Shown piece by piece: positions 31,118-46,031 of a stretch of DNA of 64,000 nt. The DNA lies in contig OZ242296.1 in the NCBI GenBank assembly GCA_965207735.1, positions 3,840,001 through 3,904,000 of the forward strand, read 5' to 3'. The notes below the pieces were generated by a model. It made no database searches. It saw only the letters and a program-made list of their open reading frames with translations, and had not been told where the DNA came from. A program made the position numbers and the translations under genes. This stretch comes from Candidatus Versatilivorator sp. Its GTDB lineage: Bacteria > Acidobacteriota > Terriglobia > Versatilivoradales > Versatilivoraceae. Every line of letters begins with the position of its first letter. Position 1 is the stretch's first letter.

Positions 31118-31644
31118 TCATTGTCGGAAGTGGAGCCGGACATGTTGGCGCAGTTGCGGCCTCTGGTGCCGGAGGGGATCAAGTCTGGCCAGGTAACGCG
31201 CCCAGTCGTCCATCAGGACACGCCGGCGTTCGAACAGGTCCGAGCGGGCATAGGCCGCCTCTACCCTATTCTGGACGACATGCGCCAGGGCTGCCTCGAT
31301 CACCTCCCGGGGGTGATCGGTCTCCTCGGCCGCCCAGTCCCGGAAGCTGGACCTGAACCCGTGCGGCACGGCTGCAATCCCCTGCTCGCGGACCAGCCAC
31401 CGTAGCTCCTTGTCACTGAGCGGCTTCCCTTGTCCACGGGTGAATACCAGAGGACCGGCTCCCTCATCCAGTGCCTGCACTGCCTCGAGAATCTCCATGG
31501 CACGGCCGCACAGCGGCACCCGGTGCTTCCGGTTCGCCTTCATCCGCCTGGCCGGGACGGTCCATACGCCAGCGTCCCGATTGATCTCCTCCCACTCGAC
31601 CCAGCGCACCTCACTCCACCTAGCCGCTGTCAGCACCAGGAACT
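31118..31644 (-). pseudogene. Outer integrase, C-terminal half (split gene)
   Basis: FLVLTAARWSEV...RMKA...PHGFR...LAH...AAY; continues in frame from 45282-46031. Confidence 0.88.
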
Positions 31645-31796
31645 GGTATGGATTCATAGAATCCATAGACTTCCATAGTCGTCCAATAAGGATTATAACT
31701 ATCTCTATAAACATATACTTACATGCATTATCCAACACTCCGTGTTTGCCCAGGATGTCCCTTGAAAGCTAGAGTCATTCCCGATATAATTGGGGA

Positions 31797-33035
31797 ATGA
31801 CTTATGGAATCAATCCGCCCCGCACGTCCCCCAAAACCAAGCCCAAGGGCCGCCATCCCCAAAAGGCCCTCTCGGCCGCCTTCGTGCGCTCGGCTCCGCC
31901 GGGAAGGCACTGTGACGGCAACGGATTGTACCTCTTCGTCCAGCCCAGCGGCACCCGGAGCTGGATTCAGCGGCTTGTCATCCGGGGCCGCAAGCGCGAG
32001 CTCGGACTCGGCAGTCTCGCCCTGGTCTCCCTGGCCGAGGCCCGGGAGAAGGCCCTGACCAACCGCAAACTGGCACGCGCGGGAGGGGATCCGCTGGCGG
32101 AGAAGCGCCGCGCCGAGGGCATTCCCACCTTCGCCGAAGCCGCCCGGCGGGTGGTGGAGCGGAAGCGGGCCGGCTGGCGCAATCCCAAATCGGCGACGAA
32201 CTGGTTGCGCAGCCTGGACGCCTACGTTTTCCCGCGAATCGGGAAGATCAGCGTCTCGGAGGTCACCAGCGCTGACGTGCTGGAGGTCCTCACGCCCATC
32301 TGGCACCTCAAGGCCGAGACGGCCCGTGCCGTGCGGCATCGCATGCGCGCGGTGCTGGAATGGAGCATTGCCATGGGTTGGAGAGGGGATAATCCTTGCG
32401 ATCGACTGCTGCCGGTGCTGGGTCCCCAACACGATGTCGTCCAACACCGCCGGGCCTTGCCCCACGGGGAGGTGGCGGCGGCCCTGGCGAGGGTGCGGGC
32501 GTCGGAACCGGCCACGGCGGACAGGTTGGCCTTGGAGTTTCTGGTGTTGACGGCGGCGCGGGGCGGCGAGGTCCGCGGGGCGCTGTGGACGGAGATCGAT
32601 CAGGAGGACGGTGTATGGACGATTCCCGCCAGCCGCATGAAGGCGAACCGCCCGCACCGGGTGCCGCTGTGTGGCCGGGCGCTGGAGACTCTCGATGCCG
32701 CCCGGACACTGGGCGGAGGCCGCAGTCCGATCGTCTTTGTCACCGAGCGCGGGCAGCCGCTCAACAACAAGCGGATGTGCCGGTTGCTCGAGAAGTACCG
32801 CATCGCGGCCGTGCCGCACGGCTTCCGGTCGTCGTTCCGGGATTGGGCGGCTGAGGAGACGGACCACCCGCGTGAAGTCATTGAGGCGGCCCTGGCGCAT
32901 GTAGTCCGAAACCGGGTCGAGGCAGCCTACGCCCGCTCGGACCTGTTCGAGCGTCGGCGCCGGCTCATGGATGACTGGGCCGGCTACCTGGCCGGCGGGT
33001 GTCGAGGGGCGGACCGGTCGGTTGATTCGCCCTAA
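31797..33035 (+). CDS. P4-like tyrosine integrase (Arm-binding DUF4102 + catalytic domain), intact
   Basis: DGNGLYLFV...GLGS...SLAEAR; catalytic R, K, HxxR, H and Y residues present. Confidence 0.93.
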   Translation: MTYGINPPRTSPKTKPKGRHPQKALSAAFVRSAPPGRHCDGNGLYLFVQPSGTRSWIQRLVIRGRKRELGLGSLALVSLAEAREKALTNRKLARAGGDPLAEKRRAEGIPTFAEAARRVVERKRAGWRNPKSATNWLRSLDAYVFPRIGKISVSEVTSADVLEVLTPIWHLKAETARAVRHRMRAVLEWSIAMGWRGDNPCDRLLPVLGPQHDVVQHRRALPHGEVAAALARVRASEPATADRLALEFLVLTAARGGEVRGALWTEIDQEDGVWTIPASRMKANRPHRVPLCGRALETLDAARTLGGGRSPIVFVTERGQPLNNKRMCRLLEKYRIAAVPHGFRSSFRDWAAEETDHPREVIEAALAHVVRNRVEAAYARSDLFERRRRLMDDWAGYLAGGCRGADRSVDSP

Positions 33036-33048
33036 CCCGCATTTCTCA

Positions 33049-43522: not shown

Positions 43523-43984
43523 CTGTTGCTCTTCCTCTTTGTCGTTGTCCCAATAACTTGATCCACCCACGCCGCCGGGACGGGACCATCAACCAGTATT
43601 GATCCGACTATCGATCCGCTACCCCTGACAATCCGGCGTCACCGTCTTCCCCTACGTTCCGGCACGTCCGAAAGCCATGCATCGGCGACAGGCCCTGCCG
43701 ATCGGTTTGCGGCGCGAAACCGCTTCGCAATGTCGACACCCGTGCTTCAGGAAAAATCACAGCGCGGGATCGAGCGCGGCGCAGGTTCCCTCGATGCCCG
43801 CTGGACCCTGCATGTTACCTGCGCTCACGGCGGCATGCCAAGCAACCTGAATCGCCCGTTTGCCTCCCGCCTCTCCCGTCCCTGCCACGCACAAGGCCAT
43901 CTGCGTCTACGAGGCTGTCATCGCCTACAGATTCAGTGGGATCCACGGAGCCGACAATATCGGTTCCTCCTTGAATCACCTCCG

Positions 43985-44548
43985 TCACTGCGGTAGCGGT
44001 CTACCAAATCTCATATCAATTAAGGCCCAGTTTTGGCGAAGTTCCAAAGCCTCGTCCGTCATATTGTCAGGGTCCCCTTCAAATCTAATAGTACAAACAT
44101 ATTCCGTTCGCATGGTTGTGCCATAAACATTCTTAGAATCGAAGTGAGATGTGATTCGATAAGTATTGTTTCCAAACCGTTCAGTTGTACTTCCGATGCT
44201 GGCAAAGGGGAAGTCTGCTGCTTCAGGGGAGTCGAGATATAAGCGAACGTAGTTTCTGCAATGCATTCTGGCCTCAGTTTCAACGTAGATACGATCTCCT
44301 GGACAAAACAAGCTGCCTAATATCACTATGCCGAGCACCACAAGGCATCCATACTTAAATTCTTTCCACTTCTTCGGCTCTTCTGGCGTTAGCGTGCGTT
44401 TCTCCGTCTTTTTTTCGGCAGCCAGTCTGTCTCTGGTTTCAGCCCGCGCCTTTTCTTCCAGGTAAATTTTCCGCCGCTCTTCGGACGTTAGCCTGCTTTT
44501 CTCACCAGATCGCTGAGCAGATGGTAGAAAAGGGTTTTTCCTCATCAT
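43985..44548 (-). CDS. Hypothetical single-TM protein (AT-rich)
   Basis: 187 aa with a TM segment and YLDSPEAADF / DSKNVYG motifs. Confidence 0.6.
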   Translation of the reverse strand: MMRKNPFLPSAQRSGEKSRLTSEERRKIYLEEKARAETRDRLAAEKKTEKRTLTPEEPKKWKEFKYGCLVVLGIVILGSLFCPGDRIYVETEARMHCRNYVRLYLDSPEAADFPFASIGSTTERFGNNTYRITSHFDSKNVYGTTMRTEYVCTIRFEGDPDNMTDEALELRQNWALIDMRFGRPLPQ

Positions 44549-45281
44549 CTTGCAGGGCTTAGTTTGGAGTATTCAGCGCACAGAATGTGCTAGGCCCACC
44601 CTAGCTTGTCCCTTTCCCTCAGCGCACGTTCGCTTTGGACGGCTGAGCGGCAAACGTTGAGTTTGAGTATAGCAGTACAGGAACCATGGCCGAGGGTTTG
44701 CTGTCAATCAGCATCGAAACTGTCAGGGTCATGGGCATCGAAATCCCCGATCCGCAGCAAGGGCAGCGTGCCACCCCGCTCGACGGTCCCGGACGAAGAG
44801 TCTCCGGAATTGAACCATCGCAGGATCTGCCCGTAAGTAACTGTTCGGTCAAGCTGTGGGCTCGACCTCCTGCGGGTTTGTCCTCTATGCCAACCGAGCA
44901 ACCGACGAAGCGTCCCCCTTCCACCTCCATCGGACTGGGGGCAGAGAGCGGAGATGAAACCCGTGGAGTCGGTCCGATATGGTCGGTTCGCCATCCGTGC
45001 AGAGGGGTTTCGTGGCTAGCGAGCACTCTCGGCTGGCCTGTCCTGGGGGGCAGCCGCTACGATGGCGGCTCAGCGGCGACACCGACGCAATGTGGCTTGA
45101 TCGCTGCGGGAAGGATGCCGGTCCGACCGGTATTCCACACCTTGAGCGAACAGTTACCGTCCGCCAACGTCCTGAATGGTCCAATGGATTCCCGTTCACA
45201 AAGCGGGATTCAATAAGGGGATTGTAGCGGACTAGGTGTGAATATATCTTGTAATATCAGTTAGTTATACTAGACGATCTA

Positions 45282-46031
45282 CACCAGGAACTCGAAGGCC
45301 AGCTTGGCCACCTCCTGCGCTGTTGCTGCCCGCACCGTCCAAATGGCCGCAGCTACCTCCCGATGCGGCAAAGCCCGCATGTGCTCGGTAACGTCCTGTT
45401 GGGGACCCAGGACCGGGCCGATCCTGTCACAGGGGTTGTCGATCCTGTACTCCATGGCTACGGCCCATTCCAGGACCGCCCGCAGGCGCTGGCGCACCCG
45501 CCGGGCGCTGGAGGCCTTCCGGTGCCAGATAGGGGTGAGGATCTCAAGCAGATCGGCGCTGGTGACCTCGGAGACCGGCATCTCGCCGATGCGGGGAAAG
45601 GCGAACCTCCTCAGGCTCGACATCCACTCGCGGTGGTGACGCCGGCCGCGCCAGCCGTCCCGCTTCTGTTCCAGCACACGCGAGGCGGCTTCGGCGAAGG
45701 TGGGGATGCCCTCGGTGCGGCGTTTCTCGGCAAGGGGATCTCCGCCCTGGCGGGCGAGCTTGCGGTTGGCCAGCGCCTTCTTCCTGGCCTCGGCCAGGGG
45801 GACCAGGGCGAGACTGCCGAGACCGAGCTCCCGGCGACGGCCACGGACGACGAGGCGTTGAATCCAACTGCGGGTTCCGCTGGGCTGGACGAAGAGGTAC
45901 AATCCGTTTCCATCGGCGAATCTTCCGGGCGGAGCGGAGCGCAGAAAGGCGGCCGAAAGGGCGTTGCTGGGGTGGCGGCCGGTGGGTTTGGTTTTAGGTC
46001 GGACAGGCGCGAAGTCCGTTACAGCATCCAT
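45282..46031 (-). pseudogene. Outer integrase, N-terminal half (split gene)
   Basis: DGNGLYLFV arm domain; ends LAFEFLV at the direct repeat. Confidence 0.9.

Follow-up and report, generated by a model that had tools for sequence, protein, structure and literature searches.

An integrative island of Candidatus Versatilivorator inserted in the integrase gene of a sister island, an arrangement that recurs in the genus

Why should one integrative island lie inside the integrase gene of another, and in such a way that its removal would make the gene whole again? The question is raised by a 64,000-nucleotide stretch of Candidatus Versatilivorator (Acidobacteriota) DNA, positions 3,840,001 to 3,904,000 of contig OZ242296.1, which is referred to here as the window. 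It comes from a genome of 5.26 Mb in one contig (G000). An initial annotation of the window had described two nested islands and suggested that the inner one, through an integrase that targets sister integrase genes, either parasitises the outer island or locks it as an ordered excision switch. The genus set comprises 14 genomes, G000 and 13 congeners, from organisms that we take to be sponge symbionts. The nested island is a real and recurrent feature; it exemplifies site-specific islands for which other mobile elements are the place of insertion and which have convergently chosen the integrase gene of their own family. It is probable that the clade of the 13.6-kb inner island uses the conserved, many-copy and dispensable gene of a sister integrase as its attachment site, one island thereby colonising another.

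The insert of 13,648 bp lies between two copies of an exact 11-bp direct repeat, CACCAGGAACT, that can be extended on neither side, and it follows codon 250 of a P4-type integrase gene, which it interrupts in frame (Table 1). When the insert is deleted in silico the 250 codons ending in AFEFLV are joined to the 171 codons beginning with LTAARWSE to give an open frame of 421 amino acids; both the repeat and the restored gene are thus as the initial annotation had them. The split point is four codons ahead of Arg255. This residue, together with Lys282, His341, Arg344, His368 and Tyr378, which we take to be the catalytic residues from what is established for tyrosine recombinases, is present in the rejoined protein, which is 88–93% identical to nine intact paralogues in G000. 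The two halves are concordant, both matching clade A of the family. The inner island has its own intact integrase (412 amino acids, 72% identical to the host integrase) beside one end and the core of the direct repeat at both ends. This integrase has arm-binding, central and catalytic domains, with the P4-type Pfam families PF13356, PF22022 and PF00589, and its R-K-H-R-H-Y residues are all present. The gene that the island has entered is a coding paralogue; the window has no tRNA. An in-frame TAG (45279–45281, minus strand) is supplied by the right end of the island directly after host codon 250.

The same arrangement is seen elsewhere in the genus. Patterns for the left and the right junction each match once, in exactly four of the 14 genomes (G000, G011, G005 and G013), and orthologues of the inner integrase, which we place in clade F, are found at 95–97% identity in the latter three. 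All four F elements interrupt a sister integrase gene between FLV and LTA. The nucleotide is the same each time, the orientation is opposite to that of the host gene and the core is 11 bp long. They are 13.6, 6.6, 4.7 and 6.8 kb in size with varying cargo. The interrupted gene is of clade A in G000 and of clade B in G011 and G013, while in G005 an N-terminal half of clade A faces a C-terminal half of clade E; in these three congeners the gene that flanks the island of the window is 0.9–2.5 Mb from the F element on the same contig. Since both hosts and loci differ, at least three of the insertions are independent. In all four elements an in-frame TAG follows the core directly, and the F gene itself is whole and differs at the target site. 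As the elements bring no replacement sequence the host integrase gene is cut. With four of four elements at one nucleotide, targeting of sister integrase genes by clade F would seem very probable, and parasitism of one element by another, which had been suggested, fits the evidence. The survey of integrases split at the FLV codons that had been proposed thus yields the same split in four genomes. The grounds on which the initial annotation would have given up its reading were discordant halves or a lack of other insertions at this position; in the window the halves are of the same clade, and further insertions at the position exist. G000 contains about 26 near-full-length paralogues and many repeats, among which an insertion by chance or a misassembly might arise, but this explanation is refuted by the recurrence at the same nucleotide in four genomes and is hardly credible. 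Contigs of one sequencing sample, possibly the source of the assembly, also bridge the left junction with 0–1 differences, and, as a weaker point, three contigs of another study (X5) have the same core followed by a variant first base.

The F sites themselves vary in several ways. In G013 (L003) both cores have the same G-to-C variant as one clade-B host gene, from which it appears that the F core can drift with its host. The mixed halves in G005 (L002), where the F element separates clade A from clade E, suggest that the stretch between two target sites was deleted or rearranged. In a clade-A integrase of G002, a genome without F ends, an additional T directly borders the F core (L004:16080-16140). 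T is also the next base after the core in three F left ends. The additional base is possibly the footprint of an imprecise excision, seen in a single case. Expression of the C-terminal half from the left end of the island was considered as a conserved feature and rejected, since a stop closes the frame in every element but that of G000.

The integrase family has 26 matches in G000 (E ≤ 1e-100), where its DNA makes up 0.82% of the genome, and matches also in 12 of the 13 congeners. Clades were sorted by target from the DNA upstream of each integrase copy, a grouping made after a first tree. The targets of clades A and B are the two strands of one repeat resembling repetitive extragenic palindromes (REP-like), that of clade C is a second repeat and that of clade D a conserved island-internal module (four of four right junctions and two of four left flanks in G000). 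Clades E, F and H target the coding sequence of their own integrase family. Distant relatives flanked by tRNA were also seen in this survey of upstream DNA. Clade E comprises 12 integrases about 54% identical to F; their elements lie in the orientation of the host gene and have a common core between ETDHP and REV. Nine of its 12 right ends run into the 3′ end of a host gene (REVIEAAL), and the elements often lie in decayed integrase fragments. H elements are inserted between RID and NPC in opposite orientation, with all three left ends joined to a C-terminal half and seven of ten right ends to an N-terminal half. The E cut precedes the catalytic tyrosine and the H cut precedes the catalytic domain. 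Each of the F, E and H genes has diverged at the target site of its own clade, and the F gene differs at the E and H sites too. A tree built from 43 of the 109 proteins recovers each of F, E and H as monophyletic (support 100/99–100), and a single clade of all three is rejected by the approximately unbiased test (p-AU 2.6e-13, for these 43 proteins and with the targets of the intervening rows unmapped). A protein search gave four clusters at 91–97% identity (64 member sequences), all sequences without genomic context. No F member was among the 29 loci of a metagenome scan (best identity 61%), and a scan of viral sequences gave none.

Some further insertions into the family were seen. In G005 (C3:2244500-2269000; L010, L054) the nesting has three levels, with an E element inside an H element inside a host integrase, and two H-like right ends of the same genome (L139, L140), in the reverse orientation, abut a host C-terminal half at residue 201, which may be one more target site. 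Elements that target REP-like repeats are found in G000 within family integrase genes at residue 65 and around residue 20 (C1:1534453-1534560 and 2823290-2823310), where REP-like words serve as secondary sites. Three family integrases (L050, L066, L100) are broken by other insertions, two of which have inverted ends like those of insertion sequences (IS) and short duplications.

It could be argued that the F integrase is blind to genes and needs a short sequence only, the insertions in sister integrases being harmless ones that survived. In G000 17 of the 30 unoccupied copies of the bare 11-mer are outside family genes and 13 within them, and off-target E and H sites exist, as such a reading would have it. 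On the other hand, three unrelated clades converge on one gene family, and the H core has only six of its 44 matches in G000 in family genes, yet it is there that the H ends counted above lie. When the host flanks are added to the 11-mer all 12 F sites are in family genes, although this pattern was built from host genes. We therefore consider selection of survivors from gene-blind insertions unlikely.

Several observations do count against targeting of sister integrase genes. The bare 11-mer alone would give the three further family-gene hits by chance about 8% of the time. The F events number four, and those in G011 and G013, both in clade-B hosts, may go back to a common ancestor (halves 85–91% alike). 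Three clade-A genes share the G-to-A change that the F gene has at its own site, so that an apparent self-immunity of F may be drift. Three of the 12 E sites are off target, and of the ten H right ends one is in a REP-like repeat and two lie near the usual site in reverse orientation. Neither an excised circle nor an empty site is among the contig joints listed, though contigs drop rare forms, and the listing covers a part only (23 joints, with 641 and 140 loose ends outside it) and is evidence in neither direction. No AlpA-type factor was found in these islands, the one genome-wide hit to PF05930 being beside an unrelated integrase; PF12728 has three hits genome-wide and none in the window, so a directionality factor of an unrecognised kind may still be present.

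If clade F does target sister genes, the paradigm of lambda and P4 suggests how this might occur. The attP of the circular form, in which an inverted repeat surrounds the core, would recombine with the target site of the sister gene, the crossover presumably falling inside the palindromic core. A motif near both ends, which overlaps the −10 box, would provide the arm-type sites. The island would probably gain many neutral landing sites by this and possibly hitch-hiking, or passive carriage, on the host island. No relaxase family was detected among the inner-island open reading frames (ORFs) scanned, nor any phage structural family among the ORFs scanned.

The proposal of an ordered excision switch, in which the outer island leaves only after the inner one has excised and restored its integrase, is not supported. 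In G000 and G011 neither half is damaged and the two can be rejoined in frame, and an island without a replacement sequence is also what passages on regulated gene integrity describe (PMC10111431). However, nine clade-A integrases in G000 are full-length, with every catalytic motif present, and have their island ends in common with the outer island, whose ends are 85–95% like those of other islands in this genome. The outer island would not be locked, since these intact paralogues could act on it in trans. Five clade-A elements at separate positions share one identical internal deletion of the integrase. Three of them are 2,076 bp long, the matched stretches are 82–97% alike and the flanks of at least three clearly differ; the simplest reading is that they spread by mobilisation in trans. 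Excision would restore two of the four F hosts (G000 and G011) and three of 11 E hosts to near full length, the F host in G013 being frameshifted and decayed and that in G005 having discordant halves. It follows that restorability is not generally preserved. Passages on archaeal elements with split integrases likewise describe excision by related intact integrases (PMC8371274). A switch is thus very unlikely, and the case suggests caution, as split genes that can be restored in frame in such genomes need not be switches.

A further possibility is that the insertion is a weapon, the host promoter driving a stopped fragment of 250 amino acids that would bind arm and core sites and act as a dominant negative against competing islands. 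The TAG after the core in all four F elements would be consistent with this, as would the retention of PF13356 and PF22022 in the N-terminal half and the positions of the E and H cuts. The TAG is, however, within the element's own inverted core-binding arm and perhaps fixed for that reason, and the decayed fragments in which E elements often lie do not fit well with such a role. We regard this as rather unlikely; it would extend colonisation of sister genes and is compatible with it. A wider scheme can be put forward tentatively, in which a radiation took place first on REP-like repeats and at least three clades, each without its own site, then cut the integrase genes of relatives (once a module), with truncated proteins, catalytically dead though still DNA-binding, suppressing rivals. 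If true, this would be an arms race on the integrase coding sequence itself.

Islands of the P4 and CP4-57 type at tRNA genes have Arm-DNA-bind_3, central and catalytic domains, an integrase by one end and a short core repeat, and a tRNA or tmRNA gene is their usual, though not universal, target. The family described here has the same domain set, an integrase beside one end and a short core repeat. It differs in its targets, which are REP-like repeats for clades A–C, the island-internal module for D and sister integrase genes for E, F and H.

Three further systems are similar in part, the first two being the closest known. Helper-embedded phage-inducible chromosomal islands (PICIs; Tommasini et al, 2023, PMC10111431) have tyrosine integrases of one clade, with several insertion sites in conserved genes of a second mobile element; as with the E, F and H islands this occurs without a replacement sequence and with some off-target events. 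The PICIs use late genes of the helper prophage, carry alpA and capsid genes and have one clade for all sites, whereas E, F and H islands target the integrase gene of their own family, with three clades of one site each, F and H being in opposite orientation; AlpA and phage genes were not found in these islands. The IME_oriT (IME, integrative and mobilisable element) of streptococci (Libante et al, 2020, PMC7563843) also integrate site-specifically inside a host element, an integrative and conjugative element (ICE), with 53 of 64 in ICE oriT. Their target is the non-coding oriT of an unrelated ICE and they carry their own relaxase, while F islands enter a coding paralogue and the inner-island ORFs scanned gave no relaxase family. 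Archaeal suicidal integrases of the SSV1, pTN3 and pT26-2 types (Badel et al, 2021, PMC8371274) leave an Int(N) and an Int(C) on integration, much as F hosts are left in halves; excision in trans by a related intact integrase and chimeric halves from recombination between elements are described for them. There the site is the attP in the element's own gene, which splits itself, whereas the F site is an attB in the gene of another element and the inserting integrase stays whole. By the feature that defines each of these systems, the F islands are neither helper-embedded PICIs nor suicidal integrases, and they would not seem to be IME_oriT either. They are a variant of the known colonisers of mobile elements, set apart by convergent targeting of the integrase gene of their own family. 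In a literature search that covered mostly open-access work and did not include the TIGER 2020 paper, no integrase clade was described as targeting genes of its own family, and a term look-up in the main text of PMC12884075 and PMC13626063 gave no passage on integrase-gene targets.

Site-specific elements thus repeatedly turn on the most conserved gene of their own family. With integrases about 55–95% identical and at least seven targets in one genus, they also form a natural series in which target switching can be tested residue by residue.

The outer island (4078–46191, 42.1 kb) has a 9-bp core, GTCGCCGCC, within a REP-like repeat. In G004 and G010, two of the five loci given, about 0.4 and 0.7 kb separate its flanks, and the left flank has no match at the remaining three. 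The initial annotation had described homologous ends in opposite orientation with matching geometry for the two islands. This holds for the right ends and for the spacing: the box at 45158–45222 matches 4147–4211 inverted, each 124 bp from its core to within 1 bp, and the distance from core to ATG is 151 bp in the outer and 152 bp in the inner island. It does not extend to the left ends, which have no BLAST match to each other.

Table 1. Coordinates of the nested islands and their main features in the window.
Feature	Position	Strand	Evidence
Outer island far-end core GTCGCCGCC, within REP-like repeat	4078..4086	-	Flanks nearly adjacent in G004, G010
Outer island right end with conserved box 4147-4211	4087..4250	-	Best matches 79–95% at 18 other G000 places
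C-terminal half of host (clade A) integrase, 171 codons, all catalytic residues	31118..31633	-	PF00589; 91–92% nucleotide identity to clade A
Inner island left core (attL), CACCAGGAACT	31634..31644	+	Exact repeat; contigs across junction
Inner island left end, predicted sigma-70-like promoter match (31762-31790, 11/12) ending 6 nt before ATG	31645..31796	+	
Inner (clade F) P4-type tyrosine integrase, 412 aa, intact	31797..33035	+	PF13356, PF22022, PF00589; orthologues 95–97%
ORF-less group II intron-like element, secondary passenger, 29 long copies in G000	33050..33920 (ends approximate)	+	
IS1380 transposase, secondary passenger, 21 long G000 copies	34000..35367	+	
Ankyrin-repeat ORF, cargo	37611..38192	-	
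Decayed 3′ fragments of family integrases, also in other islands	39838..40515	+	
Conserved island-internal module, 45 long G000 copies, holds clade D target site	40560..41110	+	
Mrr-type restriction endonuclease ORF, cargo	42524..43570	-	
Inner island right end, source of in-frame TAG	45121..45281	+	
Inner island right core (attR), CACCAGGAACT	45282..45292	+	Exact repeat
N-terminal half of host integrase, 250 codons, arm-binding and central domains	45282..46031	-	94% nucleotide identity to clade A
Outer island near-end core GTCGCCGCC, 151 bp upstream of host ATG	46183..46191	-	

The island-internal module is ORF-poor with long inverted arms, is common to all four F islands and is often a few hundred bases inside the right ends of islands; it could be a candidate transfer origin. 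At least eight of the long copies of the group II intron-like element are identical, in keeping with recent spread, and a related contig skips 33031–35603. Four identical IS copies of 1.49 kb are in or beside the outer island (2354–3840, 7997–9484, 18958–20446 and 23324–24812), the cargo of which includes an array of 234-bp tandem repeats (16585–18300) and an array of ankyrin-like repeats (21620–22111).

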